Below are positions 2,955-32,000 of a stretch of DNA of 32,000 nt, piece after piece. Origin of the DNA: Candidatus Iainarchaeum sp. (GTDB taxonomy: Archaea; Iainarchaeota; Iainarchaeia; Iainarchaeales; VGJJ01); contig JAUYHT010000006.1 in the NCBI GenBank assembly GCA_030688545.1, positions 30,001-62,000 of the forward strand, in the 5' to 3' direction. The stretch's first letter is position 1. Every line of letters starts with the position of its first letter. The position numbers were made by a program, and so were the translations under genes. The notes beneath the pieces are model-generated. The model did not search any database, was not told where the DNA came from, and saw only the letters and a program-made list of their open reading frames with translations.

Positions 2955-4226
2955 ATGCAAAAACTGGAAACCATCAATGGATTTGCCAAGCGGAATACCT
3001 TTCCCGTAATGGTGGGCAAAGTGGGAATCGGCGGCCCTAACCCCGTGCGGGTGCAGAGCATGACCAACACCGACACCGCGGATGTCGCAGGTACGGTGAA
3101 ACAGATCAAAGAGCTGGCCGACGCGGGAAGCGAACTCGTTCGCTTCACGGTGGAGAAGGATGTCATGGCGCAGGCTGTTCCTGAGATTAGGAAACGCTTG
3201 CATGATGAAGGGTATGAGGATACCGCTCTCATCGGGGATTTTCACTACAATGGACATATTTTGTTATCCAAGTATCCCGCGCTCGCGGCGGCATTAGATA
3301 AATACCGCATCAACCCGGGGAATTGTGGGTTTGGAGAGAAGCATGACGCCAATTTCGATGCCTTTATCAAAATTGCCATCGAGCACGACAAGCCCGTGCG
3401 CATTGGGGTGAATGGGGGGAGTTTGGACCAGCAATTGCTGAAGAAGCTCATCGATGACGATAATCAAAAACCAGAAGCCGAACAAGTGGGCGCCAATATG
3501 GTGTTTCTGAATGCCATGGTGGAGAGTGCCCTCATCTCAACGGAACGCGCATTGGAATTGGGGATGAGCAAGAACCAGATCATCATTTCCACCAAAATGA
3601 GTGGGGTGCAGGAGATGGTATACTGTTATTCCAAACTATCCACTCTCACCCAACAGCCCTTGCATTTGGGATTGACGGAAGCCGGGATGGGGGACAAGGG
3701 GATTGTTTCCTCCACTGCGGCACTAAGTTTGTTGCTCAACCAGGGCATTGGGGATACGATTCGCGTGTCATTAACCCCGGAACCGGGAGCCCCCCGATCG
3801 CGCGAGGTGTTGCTTTGCCAGCAGATTCTGCAAAGCCTAGGGATGCGCTTCTTCCTCCCTCAAGTAACCGCCTGCCCGGGGTGCGGGCGTACCACGAGCA
3901 TCACCTTCCAGGAGCTGGCGCAGGAAGTCACCCAGTATTTGAACACCCAGATGCCCGAATGGAAGAAGCAAGGGTATGAGGGGGTGGAGAACATGCATGT
4001 CGCGGTGATGGGATGCATTGTTAATGGTCCAGGAGAAGCCAAGGATGCCAACATAGGTATCAGCCTACCTGGAAGCGGTGAGAACCCCGCGGCCCCCGTG
4101 TTCGCCGATGGAAAGCTCGTGAAAACCCTCCAGGGTCCCACCATGAAAGCCGATTTCAAGAAGATGGTCGCCGAATACGTGGAAAAGAAATACGGGAAGA
4201 AGAAGGAAATTCCGGTTCTATCCTGA
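2955..4226 (+). CDS. ispG: 4-hydroxy-3-methylbut-2-en-1-yl diphosphate synthase (GcpE/IspG)
   Basis: The 423-aa product has [36 protein letters not shown] at the N-terminus and the Fe-S cysteine motifs ACPGCGRT and GCIVNGPGE. An A/T box at 2926-2934 is centred 25 nt upstream of the ATG, and there is no SD. Confidence 0.93.
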
Positions 4227-7154: not shown

Positions 7155-7748
7155 ATGCCGCCCCCTCCATCCAAACGCCCTCGGAAGGGCAGGGTAAAAC
7201 AACATAAGTTCGTCCATCGACCGCCGGTGTTGACGATGGATTACATAATCGAACACCACATCGACTTGATCCATGACCCCGCCAAGCGATGGGAATCTTC
7301 ATTCGCCCCATTCAACATCGACAGGGAGGATTTGGCCCAGGAAGCGTTGGTCGCGTTGATCAAGGAAGCTCCAAAATATGATGTGAACAGGGGCTCCTCC
7401 AACACTTTCGTGAATCATGTGGTCAATTCCCGATTCAACAAGATTCTACGAACCTTAAAAGAGAAAAAGAGGCATCCTGGAGGGAAGAAGGTTTCCTTCC
7501 CCCTGGATTTATCTTCCTCCCGATCCTCCGAAGGAAGCCATCGGGCGCTGATAAAGTATTGGCGGCGGCTTTATAACAAATATTCCCCGATACTTTCACC
7601 AAAGGAAAAAAAGATCATGGAAATGCGGATGCAGGGGATGAACTACAGGGAAATTGGCGCTGTGTTCAACTTGACCCAAAACCGAATTCAGCAGATCGTT
7701 AAACTATCCATCCAAAGGATGCGCGATCGCTTCTTGGAGCTGGAATAA
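7155..7748 (+). CDS. Sigma-70 family (ECF-like) protein with a basic Pro-rich N-terminal extension
   Basis: The region-2-like stretch EDLAQEALVALIKEAPKYDVNRGSSNTFVNHVVNSRFNKILR aligns by eye with RpoE [39 protein letters not shown]. The region-4 HTH is LSPKEKKIMEMRMQGMNYREIGAVFNLTQNRIQQIVKLSIQRMR. The A/T box tataaaaata (7126-7135) is centred 25 nt upstream. Confidence 0.7.
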   Translation: MPPPPSKRPRKGRVKQHKFVHRPPVLTMDYIIEHHIDLIHDPAKRWESSFAPFNIDREDLAQEALVALIKEAPKYDVNRGSSNTFVNHVVNSRFNKILRTLKEKKRHPGGKKVSFPLDLSSSRSSEGSHRALIKYWRRLYNKYSPILSPKEKKIMEMRMQGMNYREIGAVFNLTQNRIQQIVKLSIQRMRDRFLELE

Positions 7749-7833: not shown

Positions 7834-8889
7834 ATGCCCTCCGACAAAGGCACGAGTTCCCGGAAGCTCGAGCATGTGAATATCGTGCTGGGGAAGCCCG
7901 TGCAGTTCACCCAAATGACCCCGGGTTTCGAGGAAATGGAAATAGAATACCTCACCCTCCCCGAGCTGGATGCGGAAAAAATAGACACGCGCACTCATTT
8001 TTTGAAGCACCCCTTTTCGTTCCCCTTCATGGTTTCTTCCATGACCGGGGGGCATGCTAAAACGACCAAAATAAACCAGGATATTGCCACGGCCTGCGAG
8101 GAAGTAGGCATCGGTATGGGTTTGGGAAGCACCCGCGCGGCCATTGAGGATCCCAAGACCTTTTCCTCGTTTGACGTTCGGAAGCACGCCCCCTCCATCT
8201 TCCTCGCGTGCAATTTAGGGGTGTCGCAATTGAAGCATTATTCTACCCCCAAAATTCAGAAGCTCGTGGATGACTTACAGTGCGATGCGCTCATCCTCCA
8301 TTCCAATGCCGCCCAGGAGATCGTGCAGGAAGAAGGAACCCCCCAATTCGGGGGGTGTTTGAATGAAATTGCTCGAGTCGCCCGGGAGTTGGAACAACCG
8401 GTTTATGTCAAGGAAGTGGGGAATGGCATTTCCCCTTCCATAGTGAAAAAATTGAGCGAGACCCGCATCGCGGCCATCGATGTGGCGGGGGCGGGAGGAA
8501 CGAGTTGGACGGCCATCGAGAGCCGGCGGGGGACTCAAAATAATAAGGCGTTGGGCGAGCTATTTTGGAATGTGGGCATCCCCACTATTCCCGCTATCCT
8601 GGGGGCGCGGAAATATGGGAACAAGCCCATCGTGGGAAGCGGGGGCGTGCGGAGCGGAGTGGATATCCTCAAGTGCATGGTCTTGGGATGTTCCCTCACC
8701 AGCGCGGCCATTCCCGTGATCCACGCACAACATGGAGGAGGAAAACCAGCCATCGTGGCGCATATCGAATCGTTAAAACGAGCCTTCCGCGCGGGCATGT
8801 TCCTCGTGGGTGCGGCGCGCGTGCCCGACCTTAAGGGCAAGAAATATTATTTATTCGGCCGGACAAAAGAATGGGTGGAGCAGATATGA
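7834..8889 (+). CDS. fni: Isopentenyl-diphosphate delta-isomerase, type 2 (FMN-dependent)
   Basis: Carries the IDI-2 motifs SRKLEHV, SSMTGG, GLGSTRAA, HSNAAQE, PVYVKEVGNGIS, DVAGAGGTSWTAIE, WNVGIPT and GSGGVRSGVDILK. An A/T box at 7802-7811 is centred 28 nt upstream. Confidence 0.9.
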   Translation: MPSDKGTSSRKLEHVNIVLGKPVQFTQMTPGFEEMEIEYLTLPELDAEKIDTRTHFLKHPFSFPFMVSSMTGGHAKTTKINQDIATACEEVGIGMGLGSTRAAIEDPKTFSSFDVRKHAPSIFLACNLGVSQLKHYSTPKIQKLVDDLQCDALILHSNAAQEIVQEEGTPQFGGCLNEIARVARELEQPVYVKEVGNGISPSIVKKLSETRIAAIDVAGAGGTSWTAIESRRGTQNNKALGELFWNVGIPTIPAILGARKYGNKPIVGSGGVRSGVDILKCMVLGCSLTSAAIPVIHAQHGGGKPAIVAHIESLKRAFRAGMFLVGAARVPDLKGKKYYLFGRTKEWVEQI

Positions 8890-22392: not shown

Positions 22393-22659
22393 TTAAGCCT
22401 GCGGAGAGTGGGCCGCCGCGCCCTTTTTAACCCTCGATTCCATGAACGGGGGTATATGCCCTCCCCCCCGATCATACCATTGTCCGCCCGGCCTTTCCCC
22501 AAAAATAGAAATTATTTTTCCCCATCCAACCCTTTTTCCCATCCATCACAATCAGCAACAATAGCGGAAAATAGTCAGAGGCGTTCGGCCAATGGGAGAT
22601 TCCAAAAATCCCCTCGTCCCTCGGTGTGGCTGGGCGAAGCAGATCCTACCTTTTCTTCA

Positions 22660-22678
22660 GGGGTATCGAGGATACCCC
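22660..22678. promoter_or_regulatory. Perfect 19-nt palindrome GGGGTATC-GAG-GATACCCC upstream of (or within the leader of) the first pilin-like gene
   Basis: 8-bp arms at 22660-22667 and 22671-22678 with a 3-nt spacer, read directly from the sequence. Confidence 0.6.
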
Positions 22679-22728
22679 GGGTTCGGGGCGGCCGGACGAA
22701 AACGGCCATCGAAAGCGGCCGCGGGCAG

Positions 22729-23301
22729 ATGAGCGCGCCTTTCGAATTGCTCATCGCGGTCATCCTCATGGGATTTGTTCTCTTCGCCGGGTTTACCGCC
22801 ATCCAGCAGCTCCAGCAACAGACCTGCGTGAACACCATCCATTCCCAGCTGGAAAAATTGGGTCGGAATCTCCAGAATGTCGCCACTGGAAAAGGCAGCG
22901 CGCAGTTCCAGTTCTCCCTGGAGGGGTGTTCGGCCCGAATCAATGATTGTGCCCAGTTTTCCCAATTAGCCTCCGCCGGGCAGGAAGTGGAATGCATCCA
23001 GCTCCAGGATTCCACTGACCCCAATATTTGTTCGAGCTATTGTTCTTCCGCCCGTTCCGTGTGTTCCCTCCTCATCTACCGTTCGGCCAAATATGATACC
23101 ACCATCAAGTGCGTGGATATTTCTCCCTCCACTGTTTTCCCGGCCCAGGGCAGCCAGCAGTGTCCTGACCGTTCCCTGGAGGGCTGGGTCCTCCAGGATT
23201 TTACGACCTCAACCATTCGACAAGGTACTTATTCCCTGCTCAAGGGATCAGAATTAACGGCCACCGTACCCATTGTGTGTGCCTATTACCGCCAGGGGTA
23301 G
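22729..23301 (+). CDS. Pilin-like protein with a class-III-type N-terminus and a Cys-rich (10 Cys) extracellular domain
   Basis: ...GRGQ/MSAPFELLIAVILMGFVLFAGF resembles archaeal EppA-type (QxSxEF) and TadE-type prepilin N-termini. ATG is at 22729. An in-frame GTG at 22624 would give a 35-aa leader ending in RGQ, so the start is uncertain. Confidence 0.55.
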   Translation: MSAPFELLIAVILMGFVLFAGFTAIQQLQQQTCVNTIHSQLEKLGRNLQNVATGKGSAQFQFSLEGCSARINDCAQFSQLASAGQEVECIQLQDSTDPNICSSYCSSARSVCSLLIYRSAKYDTTIKCVDISPSTVFPAQGSQQCPDRSLEGWVLQDFTTSTIRQGTYSLLKGSELTATVPIVCAYYRQG

Positions 23302-23308
23302 ACCGTGC

Positions 23309-23905
23309 ATGATTGAGTTCACTCTTTCCAAAATAAATCTGCTCATTCTCGTCGTGGCTTTGTTTGGAATCATTTCTTTTTTCACTTTCAACCTGGGAGG
23401 GGTTTTCCTGGTAAATGAGGTGAAGCAGGAATTGGACACCTATTCCGCCACCATCAATGCGAGTCTCATCGCTCCCACGACATGCGATAGTAAGCCCTTT
23501 TCCATCCCCCCCAAATTCAAGTCGTTCGGGAGCGATGTATTCTATACCCTTTCCTTGTCCCAAATCCCTGATGGGTTGGGTAACCGCCTCATCTTTTCGG
23601 CGTCGGACATTCGCAAACCCGATTTGGTGTTAGCCGCCTCCTCCCTGGCCACGGATGCCCGCATTGTTATCTTCTCGGATGCCGGAGGAACATTTTTCCC
23701 CCTTTCTCCGGGGGAGGAATATGTTTTGGATCCCCAATCCGTGCCTCCCCGGAATGCGTTTTATATGGTGAAGAGTGTGATGCGTGGTAACACGACTTTG
23801 TATCTCATTCCATGCGCTATTTCCGCGCATGCCGAAACGTGCCAAACGAATAAGCAATTGGTAAATCAATTTCTCACGTCCTCGGGAGAAGGATTTGTAT
23901 GCTAA
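23309..23905 (+). CDS. Pilin-like / N-terminally anchored secreted protein
   Basis: Begins MIEFTLSKINLLILVVALFGIISFFTF, a charged IEF motif followed by a roughly 20-aa hydrophobic helix, then a soluble domain with 4 Cys. It starts 8 nt after the previous stop. Confidence 0.5.
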   Translation: MIEFTLSKINLLILVVALFGIISFFTFNLGGVFLVNEVKQELDTYSATINASLIAPTTCDSKPFSIPPKFKSFGSDVFYTLSLSQIPDGLGNRLIFSASDIRKPDLVLAASSLATDARIVIFSDAGGTFFPLSPGEEYVLDPQSVPPRNAFYMVKSVMRGNTTLYLIPCAISAHAETCQTNKQLVNQFLTSSGEGFVC

Positions 23906-24444
23906 CCCTTTTTTTGGGCGATCGGGGCTATTTGGGTCCCGTGGGGGATGACATCCCCAGCCTTATCCCCATTGTCGTGGCATTGGTCATCTTCTTCTCT
24001 GCCTTCACATTCACTCTCAATGAGTTCAATTCGCGAGGCCAAAGCTTTAACGCGGACCGGGATGTTCTTATTATCGCTAACGCGTTGAAAGGGGATAGCT
24101 ATATTGCCTCCTACCCTGAATTTGGGAGGGCTTGTGCGGGGTTACGAGTGCGGGGGTTGAATTACGTGGCGGGTCTCGTGGAGTCCTCGCGTTGGCATTC
24201 CATGTCCCAACAGGCCGCTGCCCAGCCCGATCAGCCAATTTTGAGTTTCATCGCCGATGCCTTCCACACCGAGAACAACCAGGAATTCTCCTGCCTTGGC
24301 GGGATTCAAGCCCCCCTCACGCAGGGGGGTTTGGCTTCCCTTCTTTTGGATAATCAGCATATCGTCCTCTCCTTTCCTGTGGCCCTGGAGTTGAGCACCG
24401 CGGTGGTCCCCGCGACTTTGGTGGTGATTGCTTGGAGAGTGTAA
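23899..24444 (+). CDS. Pilin-like / N-terminally anchored protein
   Basis: Begins MLTLFLGDRGYLGPVGDDIPSLIPIVVALVIFFSAFTF (basic-Gly followed by a hydrophobic helix). It overlaps the previous gene by 7 nt (ATGCTAA). Confidence 0.5.
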   Translation: MLTLFLGDRGYLGPVGDDIPSLIPIVVALVIFFSAFTFTLNEFNSRGQSFNADRDVLIIANALKGDSYIASYPEFGRACAGLRVRGLNYVAGLVESSRWHSMSQQAAAQPDQPILSFIADAFHTENNQEFSCLGGIQAPLTQGGLASLLLDNQHIVLSFPVALELSTAVVPATLVVIAWRV

Positions 24445-24463
24445 GGCTTTCATTTCTTTGTCT

Positions 24464-24489
24464 GGGTTCCAGGAGTCAACCTGGAACCC
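24464..24489 (+). promoter_or_regulatory. Perfect 10-bp stem / 6-nt loop hairpin between the third and fourth pilin-like genes
   Basis: GGGTTCCAGG (24464-24473), agtcaa, CCTGGAACCC (24480-24489). It begins 20 nt after the stop at 24444 and is not followed by a T-tract. Confidence 0.65.
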
Positions 24490-24532
24490 TAACTCCGCAG
24501 CGGCCCGACGGAACGGGCCAGGTGGTGAAATC

Positions 24533-25294
24533 ATGGCACGCGTAAGACGTTCAATTTTTGTTTCATCCGAGAGAACAGGGCAGGCCGCCGTTACGGATGC
24601 GTTGTTCCTTCTCGTCATCATCTCGGGTCTGACGGCGTTCATGCTTTTATTTTCGGCCAATTATGGCAAAGGCATTTCCGATCAAGTCAACCGGAATGAT
24701 TCATTCGAGTTCGTGGCGAGCGCGCTTAAAACCATCATGTATCAGAGCGTGGCCCGCAACGCGGATGAGATCATCAACCCTTTACATCCTGATCCGGAGC
24801 AGGAGGTGGACTATCTCATGGCCTTAGTTAAAGAAGATTTTGCGGACGACACGCAGTTATCGGTGAACACCCAGAAGAATCTGGCGCGCTCCGTTTTCCA
24901 CGTGATGCGTCCCATCGCCGACTCGCACGATTATATTTTTGCTATTAACACGGCCCAGAAATATGTATTTGTTATCCTCTGGCGCACCGAGTTCATCCCT
25001 TCCCCTAATCGATTTGGTGACGTGCAAGTGGATCCCCAGAACTCCCACCGCATGTATTCATGTGCTCCCTTGTTGAGTGATAATGCCCTCCAACGCCTCG
25101 CCCTGCGTGTGGGGAATACCACGGAAGCCCAGGCCCTGGTGAATATGGTGGAGTTTACCGGAAATTCGTTTCTTTTATCCCAGGATACCACGGCGACCCG
25201 CGCGGGAGTGACATTGGCCACGTGGACGGCCACGGTGATTCCGGATGCAGAGTGGCAGTTGCTGAACTGCACGCCTATTGCGTTCACGGTGTGA
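24533..25294 (+). CDS. TadE-like / archaeal class-III signal peptide protein (minor pilin-like)
   Basis: ATG 24533 gives MARVRRSIFVSSERTG/QAAVTDALFLLVIISGLTAFMLLF. This compares with the TadE consensus (R)G-x-AAVEFALVxP and the archaeal [KR]G/Q prepilin site. GGTGG lies upstream. Confidence 0.55.
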   Translation: MARVRRSIFVSSERTGQAAVTDALFLLVIISGLTAFMLLFSANYGKGISDQVNRNDSFEFVASALKTIMYQSVARNADEIINPLHPDPEQEVDYLMALVKEDFADDTQLSVNTQKNLARSVFHVMRPIADSHDYIFAINTAQKYVFVILWRTEFIPSPNRFGDVQVDPQNSHRMYSCAPLLSDNALQRLALRVGNTTEAQALVNMVEFTGNSFLLSQDTTATRAGVTLATWTATVIPDAEWQLLNCTPIAFTV

Positions 25295-25333
25295 GAGTTG
25301 GAGACGGGATTCACAAAATCCTGCCGAACCGTC

Positions 25334-25609
25334 CTATGATTTCTTTTTCAAATTCTTATACCATTTTTCGTATTGTTTATGGTTTCCGGAAAATCGAATT
25401 TCTTTTTCTTTGGTCTTTTCTACTATTTTGAGTGCGACCCGGTATTGGCCGATTTCTAATACGGAAAATTCAATTCCATGATTCAAATGTCTGAGTGATG
25501 TTTCCTCTTTTTGTTGTTGTATTTTTTTCCATATTCTTTCTTGGACTTGCCGATCCATTTTATCAAAATACTTGTCCCATCCGGGATAGTATTTGAGTAC
25601 ATATGGCAT
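25334..25609 (-). CDS. RelE/ParE-family type II toxin
   Basis: 91 aa. The segment ...RIWKKIQQ...LEIGQYRVALKIVEKTKEKEIRFSGNHKQY fits the RelE/ParE pattern (G-x-YR-[ivl]...[ivl]-x-[ivl]...g-x-[RH]-x-x-x-Y). It starts 6 nt downstream of the antitoxin stop, in a locally AT-rich island. Confidence 0.7.
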   Translation of the reverse strand: MPYVLKYYPGWDKYFDKMDRQVQERIWKKIQQQKEETSLRHLNHGIEFSVLEIGQYRVALKIVEKTKEKEIRFSGNHKQYEKWYKNLKKKS

Positions 25610-25615
25610 TATGCG

Positions 25616-25879
25616 TCACTTGAATCCGTATTTTTTCTTTACATTTTCTTCCGTTTCAAATTGCATGCCCTTATTTTTCATTTCTTCATCTTCTAGTTTC
25701 ATTTTAAAGGCTACCAGTTCTAACTCTAATTCTTTGGGGTCGTCTAGCAAATGGTATTCTTTTCCAAGCTCTAGGACGCCGGCACGTAGCGCTTCCGTCT
25801 TGGTTTTGAAATAGCCTTTAGCTATCAGTAGGGTGAGGATGTCTTCAGGAACCCCGCTCATTTTTACTAATGTTTCCAT
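25616..25879 (-). CDS. Putative antitoxin (ribbon-helix-helix-like) of the RelE/ParE pair
   Basis: Begins METLVKMSGVPEDILTLLIAKGYFKTKTEALRAGVLELG and has an acidic C-terminal half. It occupies the upstream position in a two-gene cassette. ATG at 25879; the track start at 25888 is GTG. Confidence 0.55.
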   Translation of the reverse strand: METLVKMSGVPEDILTLLIAKGYFKTKTEALRAGVLELGKEYHLLDDPKELELELVAFKMKLEDEEMKNKGMQFETEENVKKKYGFK

Positions 25880-25895
25880 ATAAACCACCTTTTTT

Positions 25896-25932
25896 ATGAT
25901 TATAATATGTATTCAGTAAATACTTTAATCAT
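25896..25932. promoter_or_regulatory. Nested palindromes overlapping the TA promoter A/T box (candidate operator)
   Basis: Outer arms ATGATTA (25896-25902) and TAATCAT (25926-25932). Inner arms GTATT (25909-13), cagta, AATAC (25919-23). The A/T box tgattataatatg lies about 25 nt upstream of ATG 25879. Confidence 0.5.
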
Positions 25933-26008
25933 ATTTAACCCTTTAGGTAAAATGGGAAAGAAATGGTTCTTTTGGCCAGCGAGCATAAATACGGTGATCA
26001 ATCCCCCA

Positions 26009-27136
26009 TTAATCATCGTCATCGAGCAGAGGTAGGTCGGCCATCTCCTCATCGGAAGGCAGTTCCAATTCGTCTGTTTTCTTCTTTTTTTTGGGCGATG
26101 TCGGGGCTTCCCCGAGCAAATCCTTCACATCCAAATCGGGGGTGGGGGTTTGACTAGTATTTTCAGCAGCGGGAGCAATCGAGGGACGATTGTCTTTCCC
26201 TTCCTCCAGTTGCCCGCGTTGGCGGCGGTAGTGGCGGGCATAGGCCTCGGCCGGATCATCGTTTGAGATAGGGGGGGATTGTTTGGGAGCGGAAGATGGG
26301 GGAGTGGAAGGTTGTTCTTTGGCGGCCCGCGCCCGGCGTTGTTCCATGCGTTCGCGGGGGGAGAGGCGTTCCTCTCCCACGGGGGTTTCCTCCGAGGGGT
26401 TTGATGAGGTAACCATTTCTTTTTCATCCCGCGCCGACCCAGGAAGGGTGTTGGAAAATTGGAATCGGGTGAGGGATTTCTTTTCAGGAGGGATTTCTTT
26501 TACTGTTTGAGGAGGGGGATTAATCTCCCGAGGAGGGGAGGGGGATCCAGGTTCTTTTACCGTGCCAGAATGCATGTTGCGCCGGAGTTCGGCCAACGTT
26601 TGCTCGATCTCCTCGGTGGAGGCAGTGTGGGTTCCGAGGAATGGGGATGATGTAGATTGAGTATTTTGATTGGTTGATGATGAAGAAGACGGGGTTTGTT
26701 TAAGTCCAAGAGCATGGTGTAGGGGGGGTTTCTTTCCCCCGAATAGATTGGAAACCCGTCCGAATAAACCGGATGAGGATGGTTTCCCATTTGGGTTTAT
26801 TTCGGGGGAACCAGAATAGATTGATGCGCTTGAAGAAGACTTCTCATCCGGGTGCTGGCGTTCATGCCTATGTTTTCCACGCGCGGCCTCCACATTCTCG
26901 AATACTCCCCTGCTCGGCCCGCGCATCCAGGGTTCCGATTCGTCATGCTCATCCGAATCAGGAGAAACTTCCGGTTGGGAGTTGCGTTTCCATTTGACCG
27001 GGGTTCCACGGGGGCCACTATTTCTTTTTTCAGCGGATGGGGACGAAGCCATTTGGGGGGGGATAGGCTCGCCATGGCGATAGTACCGCCGCAGCCGGCG
27101 GGGAACCTTGGATAACGAGGTTTCCATGTCAGGCAC
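26009..27136 (-). CDS. Low-complexity Ser/Pro/Glu/Lys-rich (predicted disordered) protein with an acidic C-terminus
   Basis: 375-aa ORF beginning MPDMETSLSKVPRRLRRYY, with SSSSSTNQNTQSTSSP runs, ending KKKKKTDELELPSDEEMADLPLLDDDD. It overlaps the upstream gene end by 8 nt (27129-27136), which suggests coupling. Confidence 0.5.
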   Translation of the reverse strand: MPDMETSLSKVPRRLRRYYRHGEPIPPQMASSPSAEKRNSGPRGTPVKWKRNSQPEVSPDSDEHDESEPWMRGPSRGVFENVEAARGKHRHERQHPDEKSSSSASIYSGSPEINPNGKPSSSGLFGRVSNLFGGKKPPLHHALGLKQTPSSSSSTNQNTQSTSSPFLGTHTASTEEIEQTLAELRRNMHSGTVKEPGSPSPPREINPPPQTVKEIPPEKKSLTRFQFSNTLPGSARDEKEMVTSSNPSEETPVGEERLSPRERMEQRRARAAKEQPSTPPSSAPKQSPPISNDDPAEAYARHYRRQRGQLEEGKDNRPSIAPAAENTSQTPTPDLDVKDLLGEAPTSPKKKKKTDELELPSDEEMADLPLLDDDD

Positions 27137-27764
27137 CCGGGATTCCCGGTTTCTTATCCAGGCTCTGGTTGAAGGCCTTTATATCCTTTCTCAGCTGCTC
27201 CATGGTGGCATCGAATCCTTCGAATTCGCTCGTTTCCAATCGGAATCCCAGATCGGAGGATTTCTTTTTTCTTTCTGAACGGGAAATTTTTTCTCCCGAT
27301 TCTTCCTTGAGGAGTTCAAGCACATCCATGGCATCGTTCTCGAGAATAGGAGGGGCGAGTGGTGACTCCGGTTTTCCCGTTCCCCGCAGGCGGGAGGCCT
27401 TGGATACCGCATGGGTGGGGGAAGGGATTTGGGTTTCAGGCGTTGGTACATACGTGTTCCAGTGCCACCATCCCCGCGTCACCAATCCTGTGATGCCGGC
27501 GGACAAAATCAGCAGGAGGATGAGCCAGAATCCCTGCTCCATTAATGAAAGAATGGCCGATGGGGTCAATGTTGACGACCGCTGCCAGAACACCCACCCC
27601 ACACCCCCCCATCCCACGATTAAACTGGCTCCCATTCGTTTCCATCCTTTCCAGTATTCGCTCCCCCCGATGGCGCTGCGCACCCATACATAGGCCAAAC
27701 CCGGGCTCCCTAGGAAGACGAGGCCTTGCAAGAGGGTAAAAATGAGGCTTCCCGATACGACCAT
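27129..27764 (-). CDS. Membrane protein with N-terminal TM segments and a soluble charged C-terminal domain
   Basis: 211 aa. Hydrophobic segments are SLIFTLLQGLVFLGSPGLAYVWV, ASLIVGWGGVGWVFW and FWLILLLILSAGITGLV. The A/T box at 27786-27794 is centred 26 nt upstream. Confidence 0.55.
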   Translation of the reverse strand: MVVSGSLIFTLLQGLVFLGSPGLAYVWVRSAIGGSEYWKGWKRMGASLIVGWGGVGWVFWQRSSTLTPSAILSLMEQGFWLILLLILSAGITGLVTRGWWHWNTYVPTPETQIPSPTHAVSKASRLRGTGKPESPLAPPILENDAMDVLELLKEESGEKISRSERKKKSSDLGFRLETSEFEGFDATMEQLRKDIKAFNQSLDKKPGIPGA

Positions 27765-27785
27765 ACCCCCAACAACCGGGCGCTC

Positions 27786-27794
27786 TTTTTTATT
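27786..27794. promoter_or_regulatory. Single A/T (TATA-like) box shared by divergent genes
   Basis: The box ttttttatt is centred at 27790. That is 27 nt from ATG 27817 (+) and 26 nt from ATG 27764 (-). The whole intergenic spacer is only 52 nt. Confidence 0.55.
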
Positions 27795-27816
27795 CTAGGG
27801 GTCGATTCTCCCTTTC

Positions 27817-28356
27817 ATGGTCGTTGATCTCCTCGGACAAGCCCTTTCGTATTTGGGGGGGTGGATTCTGGCGCTTTTCATTCCCCTCTTGATGGGTGTC
27901 CTGGTGGGAATCTTGGTGTTCAATGCGGTGCAGCACCGCACCGGATGGAAATGGGTCCCCGCGGCGGGATTCACCTTGTTGCTCCTATGGACCTTGCTTT
28001 TCTTCTTGGTGAACACGAGCAACCTCTTGAATGGTCTCCAGAACACCGACTTGAGTGTTATTCCTCCCGACGTGCAGGGGGATAAGGTTTACCAGGATTC
28101 GCAACCCCACCCCATTCTCTTTTTTTTCCGGGCCCTCTTCCAAAGCATCCTCGGGGCGTTCGTGTTCACTATTCTTTCCTTCCCATTTGTTTTCCTTGGA
28201 ATGATGTCATATGAATGGCTTTCCAAGCGCACCAAAAATGTGTGGTATCGCCTCATCGGAGTAGCGGGAATCTGGTCCCTCCTCCTGGGGGCACTATTAA
28301 CTGCGTTCCCCTGGATCCTCGTGGGAGTGATATATTTGGCGTTCTTCGGGCTATGA
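27817..28356 (+). CDS. Integral membrane protein with about 5 TM segments
   Basis: 179-aa ORF with hydrophobic segments throughout (WILALFIPLLMGVLVGILVF, AAGFTLLLLWTLLFFLV, ILGAFVFTILSFPFVFLGMM, LIGVAGIWSLLLGALLTAFPWILVGVIYLAFF). Confidence 0.55.
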   Translation: MVVDLLGQALSYLGGWILALFIPLLMGVLVGILVFNAVQHRTGWKWVPAAGFTLLLLWTLLFFLVNTSNLLNGLQNTDLSVIPPDVQGDKVYQDSQPHPILFFFRALFQSILGAFVFTILSFPFVFLGMMSYEWLSKRTKNVWYRLIGVAGIWSLLLGALLTAFPWILVGVIYLAFFGL

Positions 28357-28483
28357 ATTGGTTTCTGGAAAAGGCCTCTTGGGTTTGAAAAAGACCTTTG
28401 ATAATTGAAGGCTGGGGTGATTTTTTTCCGGAACCCCGAATAAGCCTTAAATAGGCCTCTTTCCCCTACCCTGCGCGAGCAAT

Positions 28484-31400
28484 ATGACGAATGGACGCGA
28501 GCGATGGGGATGTGTTTTCCTTCTTTTCCTGTTGGTATTCAGTCTCCCGGCCGCGGCGCTCTCGCGCGGAATGGCGAATAATGGTATTCAGGATGGTTTG
28601 GATGATTCGGATAATGAAAATGCTTTTCTGCCACCCCATCCCCCGAACCCTGTTTTGGGAATTGTCCCACCCGCTGAAAGCGTTCCCCTGCGTATCCAAT
28701 TACAGACTTCCCCCTCCGGCGCCCCGGCGTGCCGCCTATCCCAATTAACTCCCAGCGAGGTGCAGGCGTTCAAGGACACTATTCTCACCTCCGGATTCCA
28801 GGGAGAAGAGATTTCCGCGGGCACGCCCCCCAATCTAAATAGGGAAACGGTGGCGGATGAGAATACATTAATTGTCCCCGATCCCGCGCGCAATGGCACA
28901 GCGATCCAGAAAGAGGTGCCCACCCAGTTCCTGGAGCCGGAGGAATTATCCCCTCTTCTCAATAAGCACATCAAGAATGGCACCTTCGCCTTCGGATTAT
29001 CCATGACGGATTCCCTCCGCACCGCCCGGTGTTTGACTCCCGAGCAATGTGCGGTTTCGGGAGAGATGCTCCGTCTCCGTAATTCGGGGGAAGGATTCAC
29101 GGGGAACATTCAAAATATGTGGTCGTCCATTAAGGGGGATTTAGGGAAGCCGGATTCCTTGTTCTCCGAGGAGGAAGCCGACTACTTGTTGGGAGGAGTG
29201 GAGGCGGAACAGGAATTGGGAGAAGCGGATGCCAATTACATCCCGGTGGAAGGATTTTCCCGCATTCCTTCTAACGAGCTGATGAATTGGATTGCCGTGG
29301 ACAACACCTTCTCCTCAGCCTTGCTCACCAATTGCACCGACAGTTCGTGCATCACCATGCTGTATTCCATGTTCGACAAATACTTCAACGCCTGGTTCTC
29401 CGGGGAAATGGTTATCGGCACATTCGGTCCTACTGCGTGGGGAAAATTGCGGTATATGATTACCCGGGGAAAGCGCATCAACCTTATTTCAGCCAATTGG
29501 GCGGACCCCCTGCGGCGGAATATCGATCTTGAAAACAGATGGAAATTCCGCAATATCGAGGGCATTGGTCTGGGGGGGAATAAACCCATCGCCCCCTCCG
29601 AATTTTTTTCCAAGAGACGCCCAGGAGGTACTATTGAAGGGAAAGAGGTATTCAAGAATTACAAACGCACGATGGAACGGGAAGTGGGATCGGAGAACGT
29701 ATTCAAGGAATTCTTCGTCGACCGCAAGGTCATTTCTCCCGGAAAGTCCGCCAACTTTGAGGATGAGGCCTTCCGCTCGGGTGCCTTGAGCAAGATCACC
29801 GATTTTGATGAACAGAAGAAACTGTTCACCTACATGGGGAAGATTCGCGAGCACGCCATGGCCACCAAACATGTGGCGAAACAACTAGATGACGAATTGA
29901 AATTGGGCCGCATCTCCCAAGTGGATTACGCGCGGGGGTATTCCAAGATCGCCAAGGACCTGGATGATGTCCTCAACCTGGATATGCCCGCTTTTATTCG
30001 GGGGGAAAAAGCCACTGGTCTCCAGCGCTTCCAAGTAATTGATGTGGGCACGGGTCAACCCGTCTCATTGACAGATGGGGCGGACGGGGCCTATTTCAAT
30101 AACGTGTTCGACGAGTTCATCAAGACGGGAAATTTTAATGATGTCAGAACGCTGAAAAAGGTGGGAGAAAATATCGAGTTGTACGAACTCAAACCCCAGA
30201 GGATCATCAATGAAGCCGTTCTTGAATCCATCGAGAAAGGGGAATATGCGGACGATGTTTATGTCCTCCTCAGCGATGGGGTTACAACGGTGCCCGCCAC
30301 GAAGACCCAATACAAAACCATTTTCGACGATTTCAAGGCCTCGGGGATAAAGCCCCGGATCGTGGAGGGGGGTCGTACCTTGGTACCGGGAGGCTTGTCC
30401 CCCGAGCTGTTCGGAAAAGGAATCGTCGGAGGAGATGTGCTCAAGGAAAAAATAAAGTGGTACCACCGCAATGTCGAAGCGGTCCATGATACCATGATTT
30501 CGCGAGATTGGGGCCGCGGGAATTATACAAACCTTCTCTCCCGCTCGATGCAGGGACAGGAAAAGCTGATCAAGAATTACGTTAATGTGTTAAATCCCGA
30601 TGTGGCGGCCGGTCCCTTGGGGTGGACGGCCAAAACCTATGGGTATTGGTGGGTCACTCGCGGATTGGGATTCGACGACTTTACCCTTTACCGGTTGCCC
30701 GATGAGTTCACGGAGATTGCATTCTCCACGGGGGATGTCCCCATCTATGATGATGCCTACATCGATTTTTTCGCCAATGAAGGATCAGATACGGGCGACC
30801 TGTTCCAGCGCCTCATATCCAAATTCCCTTTTCCCGCTTTGGTAATTGACCCTCTGGCGTCCCGGTTCGAGCCTCTGGAAAAGGCCTGGAATTTCTTCAG
30901 TGGGAAACAAGCTCGCACTCAACCAGATAATCTCGCCCTATTCATGTTTGGAGGAGAATCCTGTCCCACCTGCAAAGCCACCATTGCTTCCCCTTCCCTG
31001 GAGCAGGCTAATGTCTATTTCCAGAGCCCCGAGAGCCTCACTGGTTTTCTCCTCGAGGATGGCCAATCTAAAGATGCAAGGGAATTAGGACAATTACTCG
31101 TCGCCTATGCCCACCACCTGGATATTGGGGGCCAGCTCAGTGGGGAGGTGTTGGATCAAATCACCCTCTCCACGGCCCGGGAGAAAGGCCTCGCGTGCGA
31201 TCAGGTGATTGAGGATGTTTTTCTCTGGGGAAATGTATCCAAACTCATCGGGGCGGAGCGTATTGGAGCCGCATTGGCCGTAACCGAAAACCTCTCCTAT
31301 TGGGTGTTGGGTTATGGCGGCACGTTGGTCACGGCGATCAACCAGATTTATTTTGCCCAGCAGATGAATGAATGCGTGGACGATAAGGAGGGGTATTTCG

Positions 31401-32000
31401 CCCACATCTTCGTCCCGCGGGAAGTGGAAGGACAAGGGAAATCCCAGGAAATCCAGAATTCCGCCACCCAGGAAGCATTGGATGGGATTCAGGCTTTTGC
31501 TGGTCGCGTGCAGGCCGATGCCACGGATGCCTCCCTCTCGGATAAGGCGTTGGCTGAGGCCACAGGGAAAGTGAAAGAATTGGTGGATGATGCCCGCAAG
31601 CGGGATGTGGTGGAGGCCGAGCTCCGCATTTCTGGTGCCTCGTATGGGGGGATCGAGTCGAAGAAACCTATCTATTTTTGGGTGGGCCCGCAAGCAGAAT
31701 TGGATGTGAGTGCGTATTCCACGGATGGGAAAACCGTTCTTTCTAATGCGGATGGGGATACGTTGACTTTAGATAACCAGTCAGGCACCCTCACGGTGAA
31801 TGGGCAGCCGGTAATCGACAGCAGTGAAGCCGATCATGTCCGCCTGGCCAGCACCAACCTATCCATCCCCGCGGTGGAGGTGCCCCAGCGCCTCAATGCC
31901 TTTTCCCTGGATGATTCCAACCGATTCATCTTAGGGATAAACGTTCGGGGGGAAACAATTGTTCACGACCCGGCGCTCCTCGATTGTATTCGACAAGCCG
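28484..32000 (+). CDS. Very large secreted/surface protein with its N-terminus in the window and its 3' end beyond the window
   Basis: Frame 2 is open from ATG 28484 to the window end (1,172 codons, no stop). It is not in the track because it is open-ended. The signal-peptide-like N-terminus is MTNGRERWGCVFLLFLLVFSLPAAALS. All track ORFs in this interval are in other frames or antisense. No known domain is recognised by eye. Confidence 0.8.
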   Translation, partial: MTNGRERWGCVFLLFLLVFSLPAAALSRGMANNGIQDGLDDSDNENAFLPPHPPNPVLGIVPPAESVPLRIQLQTSPSGAPACRLSQLTPSEVQAFKDTILTSGFQGEEISAGTPPNLNRETVADENTLIVPDPARNGTAIQKEVPTQFLEPEELSPLLNKHIKNGTFAFGLSMTDSLRTARCLTPEQCAVSGEMLRLRNSGEGFTGNIQNMWSSIKGDLGKPDSLFSEEEADYLLGGVEAEQELGEADANYIPVEGFSRIPSNELMNWIAVDNTFSSALLTNCTDSSCITMLYSMFDKYFNAWFSGEMVIGTFGPTAWGKLRYMITRGKRINLISANWADPLRRNIDLENRWKFRNIEGIGLGGNKPIAPSEFFSKRRPGGTIEGKEVFKNYKRTMEREVGSENVFKEFFVDRKVISPGKSANFEDEAFRSGALSKITDFDEQKKLFTYMGKIREHAMATKHVAKQLDDELKLGRISQVDYARGYSKIAKDLDDVLNLDMPAFIRGEKATGLQRFQVIDVGTGQPVSLTDGADGAYFNNVFDEFIKTGNFNDVRTLKKVGENIELYELKPQRIINEAVLESIEKGEYADDVYVLLSDGVTTVPATKTQYKTIFDDFKASGIKPRIVEGGRTLVPGGLSPELFGKGIVGGDVLKEKIKWYHRNVEAVHDTMISRDWGRGNYTNLLSRSMQGQEKLIKNYVNVLNPDVAAGPLGWTAKTYGYWWVTRGLGFDDFTLYRLPDEFTEIAFSTGDVPIYDDAYIDFFANEGSDTGDLFQRLISKFPFPALVIDPLASRFEPLEKAWNFFSGKQARTQPDNLALFMFGGESCPTCKATIASPSLEQANVYFQSPESLTGFLLEDGQSKDARELGQLLVAYAHHLDIGGQLSGEVLDQITLSTAREKGLACDQVIEDVFLWGNVSKLIGAERIGAALAVTENLSYWVLGYGGTLVTAINQIYFAQQMNECVDDKEGYFAHIFVPREVEGQGKSQEIQNSATQEALDGIQAFAGRVQADATDASLSDKALAEATGKVKELVDDARKRDVVEAELRISGASYGGIESKKPIYFWVGPQAELDVSAYSTDGKTVLSNADGDTLTLDNQSGTLTVNGQPVIDSSEADHVRLASTNLSIPAVEVPQRLNAFSLDDSNRFILGINVRGETIVHDPALLDCIRQA

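Follow-up and report, generated by a model that had tools for sequence, protein, structure and literature searches.

Archaeal pilus loci follow an established plan, in which genes for an ATPase, a platform protein, and major and minor pilins are accompanied by one for an S-layer-like protein (PMC4858521). Among the described systems closest to the genes reported here is the EppA-dependent (Epd) pilus of Methanococcus maripaludis, which has EpdA-D as minor pilins and MMP1685 as its short major pilin. It represents "system 1" of the archaeal type IV filaments (TFF), sister to the bacterial Tad pili. Epd pilins carry Gln at +1, the mature major pilin measures 62 amino acids (aa), several minor pilins are essential, and the loci are dispersed (PMC3875500); the pilin genes are separate from those for the ATPase and the platform, and there are two platform genes (PMC3875500; PMC6668835; bioRxiv 10.64898/2026.04.22.720090). 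Here, we describe four consecutive genes, designated G1 to G4, from a stretch of 32,000 nucleotides (nt) of Candidatus Iainarchaeum sp. (assembly GCA_030688545.1, contig JAUYHT010000006.1, positions 30,001 to 62,000; this whole stretch is called the window, and coordinates refer to it unless stated otherwise). The Iainarchaeota are uncultured DPANN archaea, the cell-surface biology of which is known from gene predictions only. Signal peptides and gene neighborhoods show that the predicted products of G1 to G4 belong to a type IV filament system, three of them being prepilin-like. We regard the four genes, with a probability of roughly 0.6, as a conserved module of accessory, minor-pilin-like proteins that serves an Iainarchaeota-specific type IV pilus system.

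The locus shares several features with Epd. Class III signal peptides that end in Gly and are followed by Gln (+1) are seen in G1, G4, and the pilins encoded next to them in related genomes, namely, those of the A/B type and a tiny pilin (see below). Several different accessory pilins of 130 to 300 aa stand beside a very short pilin of the major type that has no globular domain, the pilin operon and the ATPase/platform genes can occupy separate loci, and the adjacent machine beyond the window combines a TadA-like ATPase with two contiguous platform genes that each encode one T2SSF domain. There are also differences. G1 to G4 have no detectable sequence or hidden Markov model (HMM) similarity to DUF361/UPF0333 or to the Epd proteins; their acidic residue lies at +6 to +8 rather than at +5; G3 has Phe or Tyr at +1 and G2 is leaderless; in most Iainarchaeota, the operon that holds the module encodes a different ATPase (~760 aa) and only one platform protein (~720 aa); and the G1-G4 cluster holds no eppA-like peptidase gene.

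A four-gene module conserved across Iainarchaeota

The four genes are arranged head to tail on the plus strand, with 7 nt between G1 and G2, a 7-nt overlap of G2 and G3, and 88 nt between G3 and G4. An earlier note, made from the sequence of the window alone, had described them as consecutive and tightly packed or overlapping, and both this layout and the N-termini that it quoted are exact when compared with the coordinates and translations of the open reading frames (ORFs). Motifs resembling a Shine-Dalgarno (SD) sequence precede G2 (AGGGGT), G3 (GGGAGAAGGA), and G4 (GGTGGTGA). A scan of one genome per species recovered 65 loci with a relative of G4, and a scan of metagenomes added more. In every one of the 73 loci in which family HMMs recognize all four genes, the order G1-G2-G3-G4 is kept on one strand, and nearly all of these loci come from metagenome-assembled genomes (MAGs) that belong to the Iainarchaeota/Diapherotrites type. 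Named homologues of G4 and G1 are likewise nearly all archaeal, mostly from Candidatus Diapherotrites or Iainarchaeum MAGs. Median spacings over the related loci are 8 nt, at most 26 nt, and at most 20 nt for the successive junctions from G1 to G4.

Comparison of the window with relatives from its clade gives nonsynonymous differences of 0.19 to 0.33 per site against saturated synonymous differences of 0.70 to 0.88, and the ratio of the two rates (dN/dS), where computable, is about 0.10 to 0.16. The strict collinearity, the low nonsynonymous and saturated synonymous differences, and the near-invariant N-terminal motifs set the four apart from chance ORFs; G1 to G4 are thus real genes under strong purifying selection. 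The block also moves as a unit, since in one metagenome locus (L105, 1584-12289) it has been rearranged such that G1 to G4 come first, followed by the platform, the pilins, the tiny pilin, and then the ATPase. The soluble parts of the four proteins are unrelated to each other: every pair of G1-G4 profiles scores below 3% probability in hhalign, in agreement with the earlier note, which had called the soluble parts mutually dissimilar.

Prepilin-type signal peptides and the leaderless member

Processing sites were assessed on alignments of stop-to-stop translations from 56 to 61 loci per family. In G1, G3, and G4, conservation begins exactly at a [KR][GA] site, whereas the leaders ahead of it vary in length and sequence; by this pattern, the three carry class III (prepilin-type) signal peptides. 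All four N-termini contain a hydrophobic stretch. The prepilin-type signal holds for G1, G3, and G4 and not for G2.

G1 encodes a cysteine-rich pilin-like protein that ends at 23301 and starts at either GTG 22624 (225 aa) or ATG 22729 (190 aa). The predicted prepilin has a leader of ~34 aa ending in GRG and followed by Q|MSAPFELLIAVILMGFV. Over 56 loci, the residue at -2 is K/R in 51, and G/A at -1, Q at +1, and F at +6 are without exception; E occupies +7 in 52 of them. The sequence after Q+1 follows ESAPFELLIAVILMGFV, and the mature consensus opens with Q|ESAPFELL. At least eight cysteines are conserved in the family alignment, and the window protein has the 10 that the earlier note had counted. 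The 74 N-terminal columns of the G1 profile are homologous to the family of the upstream pilins A/B (hhalign probability 95.9%, E = 5.9e-9).

An automatic gene caller placed the start of G1 at ATG 22729. This start was rejected because of the GRGQ that lies upstream in frame and matches the cleavage motif of the family, and because its Met would be residue +2 of the mature protein, a variable position occupied by E, V, T, or A in homologues. An ATG lies 3 to 13 codons before the motif in 14 of 15 clade relatives; the window and its nearest relative (L011) have no such near ATG and share a GTG ~34 to 36 codons upstream. GTG 22624 is preferred because it alone among canonical starts retains the signal peptide, and it is most likely the true start. 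The two candidates are those named in the earlier note, which had left the choice between them open; the leader motif and the starts of relatives now favor the GTG. In public databases, some orthologues of G1 bear the names "UPF0333," "Class III signal...," or "pseudopilin PulG," and the Joint Genome Institute lists two as "UPF0333 family."

G4 (24533 to 25294; plus strand) encodes a pilin-like protein of 253 aa with the leader MARVRRSIFVSSERTG, followed by Q|AAVTDALFLLVIISGLTAF. Its family shows K/R at -2 in 49 of 57 loci, with G/A at -1 and Q at +1 in all 57, followed by AAVTDALF; Q+1, A+2, A+3, and D+6 show no variation, and leaders are of variable length. The window protein departs from the family consensus in having T at -2 (ERTG|Q), such that the [KR]G/Q peptidase site that the earlier note ascribed to the first and fourth proteins is found in full in G1 and, in G4, with the expected residues at -1 and +1 only. 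A TTG at 24428 was considered as an alternative start of G4 and is unlikely, as ATG 24533 has both the SD-like motif given above and a leader like those of homologues. Two cysteines, C177 and C246, are invariant in G4.

The same note had also seen the TadE pattern in the first and fourth proteins and had proposed HMM searches with TadE and DUF361. By eye, GQAAVTDALF of G4 does resemble the TadE pattern G-x-A-A-V-E-F-A-L, and G1 has Q+1 and S+3 of the motif Q-x-S-x-E-x-x-x-L of PF04021 (Class_IIIsignal, DUF361/UPF0333), with the E at +7. Neither model is supported: none of G1 to G4 matches PF07811 (TadE) or PF04021 at E <= 1, and precomputed Pfam domains are absent from the homologues.

G3 (23899 to 24444; plus strand; 181 aa) is a pilin-like protein with the leader MLTLFLGDRG, followed by Y|LGPVGDDIPSLIPIVVALVIFF. 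Across 61 loci, K/R stands at -2 in 55, G at -1 in 59 (G/A in all 61), and F/Y at +1 in 60. The mature start reads [FY]|[IL]GPIGDD[LI]PSLIP, with G3, I5, G6, D7, D8, P10, S11, L12, and P14 invariant, so that an Asp pair occupies +7/+8 in 61 of 61 loci. Leaders in distant relatives can be as short as MKG|F or MRG|F. The family comprises 183 clusters at 50% identity (E <= 1e-3) among 1.84 billion representatives.

G2 (23309 to 23905; plus strand; 198 aa) stands apart as a leaderless pilin-like or signal-anchor protein that starts with MIEFTLSKINLLILVVALFGII. Its consensus over 57 loci is M-[LI]-[G/E/D]-F-x-L-S-K-x-N-L-L, with S7 and K8 invariant and with G (28 loci), E (20 loci), or D (7 loci) at position 3, the residue in the clade of the window being Glu. 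The ATG is preceded by its SD-like motif, the median gap from the G1 stop is 8 nt, and no conserved leader is present upstream of it in the 57 loci. Given that the ORF starts at the motif without upstream conservation and that the clade has Glu at position 3, G2 is probably not cleaved, and judged by its N-terminus it is not a canonical prepilin. The invariant S-K-[ILM]-N-L-L of G2 (23309-23370) recalls INLLP at the N-terminus of bacterial PilN, a motif that binds PilM. This likeness, which falls at the start of the membrane helix and for which no PilM-like gene was seen, is probably a coincidence.

AlphaFold2 (AF2) models built from the family alignments are confident for G1 (predicted local distance difference test [pLDDT] 92.9; predicted template modeling score [pTM] 0.83) and G4 (pLDDT 88.9; pTM 0.80). 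In the former, a helix of 49 residues (8-56) precedes beta-strands and two short helices; in the latter, a helix of 58 residues (13-70) precedes an alpha/beta domain. This layout, a long N-terminal helix with a strand-containing head, is one that pilins have. The conserved cysteines of G1 and G4 fit extracellular domains.

Assembly machinery and operon context

The earlier note had suggested that these genes could serve a type-IV-filament-like structure and described them as being without any assembly machinery nearby. The first part stands, as shown by the class III signals and by the operons described below; the second does not. The statement is literally true of the 32-kb window, in which genes for an ATPase, a platform, and a peptidase are absent, but contig L008, which is identical to window positions 24491-32000 (0 mismatches over 7,510 nt) and extends the window by 6.3 kb, carries two T2SSF platform genes and a T2SSE ATPase gene just past the window end (window-equivalent positions 34774-37641). 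These lie 2.8 to 5.6 kb beyond that end and 9.5 to 12.3 kb downstream of G4, and the apparent absence of machinery thus arose because the window was cut before it. The order on L008 after the gene for a 1,534-aa protein is a SRAP-domain gene, a PAC2-type chaperone gene on the minus strand, the platform genes (310 aa and 202 aa), and the ATPase gene. The platform ORFs have one T2SSF domain each (E = 4.1e-8 for that of 310 aa and 7.9e-8 for that of 202 aa), and the ATPase (449 aa) has the TadA family as its best NCBIfam match (7.6e-44). A pair of contiguous platform genes, each with a single T2SSF domain, is what defines Epd-like and Tad systems (PMC6668835; bioRxiv 10.64898/2026.04.22.720090); by this gene content, the machine beside the window is Epd/Tad-like. 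The idea that the split T2SSF is a pseudogene was rejected, since two platform genes are the hallmark of Epd/Tad systems (PMC6668835). The PAC2-type gene (L008 9351-10226, minus strand; window-equivalent 33841-34716; TIGR00161, 3.4e-41) directly adjoins the platform and ATPase genes of this machine across the phylum.

Outside the clade of the window, G1 to G4 form the distal end of a run of genes on one strand, the ancestral operon, the full anatomy of which is displayed by L051 and 13 metagenome loci. The run opens with an ATPase of ~760 aa (T2SSE, 9e-18; FlaI model, 6.6e-39) and a platform protein of ~720 aa with a weak T2SSF match, continues with two or three pilins of the A/B type (140-185 aa; KGQ|AFSVFKLLIAAVVA) and a tiny pilin with a mature length of 42-54 aa ([KR]AQ|SEWSSVYMLIVLIIAALLLI...), and closes with G1 to G4. 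In 22 of the 38 related loci with enough upstream flank, the ~760-aa ATPase is encoded upstream on the same strand, and G1 to G4 there come directly behind the FlaI/TadA-type ATPase, the PilC/TadC-like platform, and the other pilins. The gene for the tiny pilin lies just upstream of G1 (L051 8170-8330; also in L003, L005, L030, L033, and others). Its product is highly conserved, with a leader ...EE[KR]A and a mature part beginning QSEWSSVYMLIVLIIAALLLITVIKPMF..., has no globular domain, and resembles the Flp or EpdE pilins; it is a likely major subunit. Some orthologues of the 760-aa ATPase measure 1,260 to 1,290 aa and contain intein/homing-endonuclease domains PF14528 and PF14890 (P0054, P0058, P0059, P0062, P0098, P0109, and others).

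In the clade of the window, gene order indicates that the module has become detached from this motor operon, because all 10 clade loci with enough flank have genes for a PD-(D/E)XK nuclease and SerRS upstream instead. The complementary half of the split also exists, as metagenome loci L084 and L139 end after the tiny pilin without G1 to G4. No homologue of the 760-aa ATPase is found on the contigs of the window's clade (445,965, 1,048,949, and 246,316 bp) among the best 120 of 956 matches. A metagenome scan with this ATPase returned full operons, the split loci L084 and L139, and many loci with the ATPase only, at 57-60% identity. The one ATPase-only locus inspected (L123) looks like a different, low-GC organism (GC 0.30) rather than a member of the window's clade. 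A scan with bacterial promoter and terminator models was uninformative for an archaeon.

Functional interpretation

The reading that we favor, an accessory module of an Iainarchaeota-specific pilus system, draws on the presence of four different single-copy pilin-like proteins after a motor and other pilins. The hydrophobic N-terminal helices would insert G1 to G4 into the membrane, where a prepilin peptidase of the PibD/EppA type would cut G1, G3, and G4 after [KR][GA] and leave G2 uncleaved. The four proteins, with their unrelated globular domains, could then come together through these helices as a complex of low abundance. This complex would prime, cap, or decorate a filament consisting for the most part of another pilin, the candidates being the tiny pilin and pilins A/B, and assembly would be driven by the ATPase and platform. 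In the clade of the window, the detached module would presumably be transcribed from its own promoter in the intergenic region 22393-22623. A priming, tip, or decorating complex is favored because the arrangement resembles both the Epd minor pilins of M. maripaludis and the bacterial minor-pilin tetrads.

Several observations weigh against this interpretation. A minor rather than a major role, and a position at the tip rather than at the base, are suggested by analogy only. G2 lacks a leader and, in the clade of the window, a Gly at -1. The acidic residue lies at +7 in G1, +7/+8 in G3, and +6 in G4 instead of at +5; Glu at +5 is typical of bacterial and Epd pilins, is absent from Sulfolobus and Haloferax pilins, and is variable among archaeal pilins (PMC3875500). 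Pfam and NCBIfam scans of G1 to G4 gave nothing above threshold, archaeal pilin N-terminal models included. Foldseek found no pilin or other neighbor in the PDB for the G1 and G4 models (best E = 0.022 and 0.57; TM score <0.3), and a profile search of PDB sequences with G1 returned only PilE1, nonsignificantly (E = 0.23). No prepilin peptidase gene came to light, in that no multi-transmembrane ORF with a GxGD-type motif was detected in the window or the fetched loci, and no scanned window ORF matched Peptidase_A24. Finally, the window yielded neither the first motor (the 760-aa ATPase and 720-aa platform) nor pilins A/B nor the tiny pilin.

One alternative, which we consider unlikely, is that some or all of G1 to G4, and G2 above all, are membrane-anchored assembly or anchoring parts comparable to ArlF/ArlG of the archaellum or PilN/PilO of bacterial pili, in which the N-terminal helix holds an extracellular domain that links the motor or the filament base to the cell envelope. 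The leaderless G2, with its invariant Lys before the hydrophobic segment (as in a signal anchor of N-in topology) and an acidic residue (E/D) at position 3 in the window's clade, is what such a part might look like, and the globular domains modeled for G1 and G4 have no pilin neighbor in the PDB. Moreover, the module keeps its linkage to a giant S-layer-like protein (32 of 36 loci) even where it has come off the first motor. However, the prepilin signature is complete in G1, G3, and G4, where conservation sets in precisely at [KR][GA], which would be needless in an uncleaved anchor, and G1 is paralogous to the neighboring pilins.

The same linkage can be read more boldly. On this view, which we consider unlikely, G1 to G4 would do more than decorate a single pilus and would constitute a phylum-wide, novel-fold, four-protein adaptor that remains genetically linked to the S-layer-like protein of 1,534 aa and can work with one or the other of two different type IV filament motors. 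If so, a tip or envelope-spanning complex that presents the giant surface protein, or threads through it, becomes possible, and the module could bear on how small DPANN cells attach to surfaces or partners.

Less probable still is a short pseudopilus or bindosome-like assembly, as in type II secretion or the Bas system of Sulfolobus, that exports, positions, or displays the 1,534-aa protein in place of forming a long adhesive pilus. The linkage of G1 to G4 to the pair formed by the giant protein and its small membrane neighbor m179 is phylum wide, that to the second ATPase/platform set on L008 comes without adjacent pilin genes, and class III signal peptides are also used by archaeal surface proteins that are not pilus components (bioRxiv 10.64898/2026.04.22.720090). 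Linkage by itself is, however, no proof of functional coupling. The giant protein appears to have an independent route of export and anchoring, because it bears a Sec-type signal peptide of its own and, at the C-terminus, an anchor resembling a sorting signal and because an archaeosortase-family gene lies nearby in distant loci; nor did the Pfam and NCBIfam scans detect a substrate-binding domain in G1 to G4. That the four are ordinary Sec-dependent signal-anchor or secreted proteins that merely resemble pilins and are unconnected to a type IV filament machine, as the lack of any family-model match and of a peptidase in the window and the fetched loci might suggest, is highly improbable in view of the near-invariant residues at -1 and +1 behind variable leaders, the fact that in 22 of 38 loci they follow the ATPase, platform, and pilin genes in one operon, and the N-terminal helices of 49 to 58 residues in the AF2 models of G1 and G4.

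Comparison with other multipilin systems and significance

Beyond Epd, the module invites comparison with the minor-pilin tetrads of bacteria, i.e., GspH/I/J/K of type II secretion, FimU-PilVWX with PilY1 of type IVa pili, and ComGD-GG of competence pili. Like these, it consists of four pilin-like genes that differ from each other in sequence and keep a fixed order, one member being atypical at the processing site. As in comGA-GG, G1 to G4 follow the ATPase, the platform, and the major pilin in one operon, and, as in FimU-PilVWX, where it is PilY1, a large surface protein is encoded nearby. However, no homology is detectable: the match of G1 to the NCBIfam ComGD model (E = 0.037; 14.4 bits) is far below the cutoff of 70, and Foldseek found none. 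The context and signal peptides are archaeal, and the large neighbor is C-terminally anchored and S-layer-like rather than PilY1-like. The resemblance is one of gene organization only.

Small size, a pilin-like hydrophobic N-terminal helix, an extracellular domain, and a gene located with a type IV filament motor are also shared with ArlF/ArlG (FlaF/FlaG) of the archaellum. ArlF/ArlG interact with the S-layer, and they are the model for G2. In contrast to them, G1 to G4 give no sequence match, and G1, G3, and G4 have cleavage motifs, which ArlF/ArlG are not known to use. Of the remaining archaellum genes (ArlH, ArlX/CDE, and archaellins), none was seen.

The module also resembles the "dark matter" pilins of DPANN archaea predicted by Makarova, Wolf, and Koonin in 2019 and by Makarova, Koonin, and Albers in 2016 (PMC6393860; PMC4858521), which are lineage specific, match no family, and are encoded beside a FlaI-type ATPase, a TadC-like platform, and S-layer-like genes; unannotated DPANN proteins with signal peptides beside FlaI/TadC were predicted to be pilins by Makarova et al. 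(PMC6393860). The texts of these two studies, in which a search found no mention of Iainarchaeota or Diapherotrites pili, appear not to describe the four-gene module, its motifs, its phylum-wide collinearity, or its detachment in one clade. Since lineage-specific pilins beside FlaI/TadC are expected in archaea and have been predicted for DPANN, what we describe is no new kind of machine; rather, these are new pilin families in a known type of system. What is new comprises the four families, their motifs, the strict phylum-wide collinearity, the adjoining tiny pilin, and the split in one clade.

More generally, four protein families lying outside Pfam and NCBIfam are now defined by cleavage motifs, gene order, and partners; a complete pilus operon is shown for most of a phylum, along with a split arrangement in one clade; and the start of G1, which automatic callers misplace, is corrected. 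The four families also offer concrete starting points for predicting the structure of the assembled complex, for metaproteomics, and for tests of processing in a heterologous host.

Neighboring genes and other content of the window

Downstream of G4, a charged minus-strand protein, a small multipass membrane protein, and a giant secreted protein are encoded in succession across the phylum. In the window, the first position is occupied by o375 (26009-27136; minus strand), a low-complexity protein rich in Pro, Ser, Glu, and Lys, and o211 (27129-27764; minus strand), a membrane protein. Homologues of both lie between G4 and the giant protein in loci of the window's clade, and in distant lineages a Zn-ribbon protein rich in Lys and Glu takes this position; from this synteny, o375 and o211 might belong to the pilus system. 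The small multipass membrane protein m179 (27817 to 28356; plus strand), which matches no family in Pfam or NCBIfam, is encoded directly upstream of the giant protein, a position conserved across the phylum.

The giant protein itself (1,534 aa; 28484 to 32000, plus strand, running off the window end; full gene, L008 3994-8598) has a signal peptide and, as seen in the C-terminus from L008, an FN[IL]PS[LM]P motif followed by a transmembrane helix and a basic tail. It has no match in Pfam or NCBIfam and is encoded at most 6.5 kb downstream of G4 in 32 of the 36 loci with enough flank. These features suggest that it may be an S-layer- or adhesin-like protein with a sortase-type anchor signal; S-layer-like proteins are frequent in archaeal pilus loci (PMC4858521). 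An exosortase/archaeosortase-family gene (TIGR04178, 2.2e-9; L051 449-937, minus strand) lies divergently upstream of the 760-aa ATPase, and one occupies the same position in L032, L044, L047, L054, L064, L074, and many of L076-L111. Its product is a candidate processing enzyme for the C-terminal signal of the giant protein.

Two small ORFs (91 and 90 aa; 25334-25888, minus strand) intervene in the window between G4 and its conserved neighbors. The first has a weak match to the HigB/RelE toxins (4e-3), and both are seen only in contigs identical to the window and not in related loci; they are probably a toxin-antitoxin insertion.

Elsewhere, the window encodes SerRS, TIM, a PD-(D/E)XK nuclease, and an HxlR regulator. 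It also carries, all on the plus strand, the methylerythritol phosphate (MEP) pathway genes dxs (836-2731) and ispG (GcpE; 2955-4226) and a gene for a flavin mononucleotide (FMN)-dependent dehydrogenase resembling IDI-2 (7834-8889). The mevalonate route is the norm in archaea, and dxs and ispG are unusual there. Finally, a 197-aa ORF (7155-7748; plus strand) matches Sigma70_r2 (6.4e-7) and Sigma70_r4 (1.3e-7) and thus represents a bacterial-type sigma-factor-like gene on an archaeal contig.

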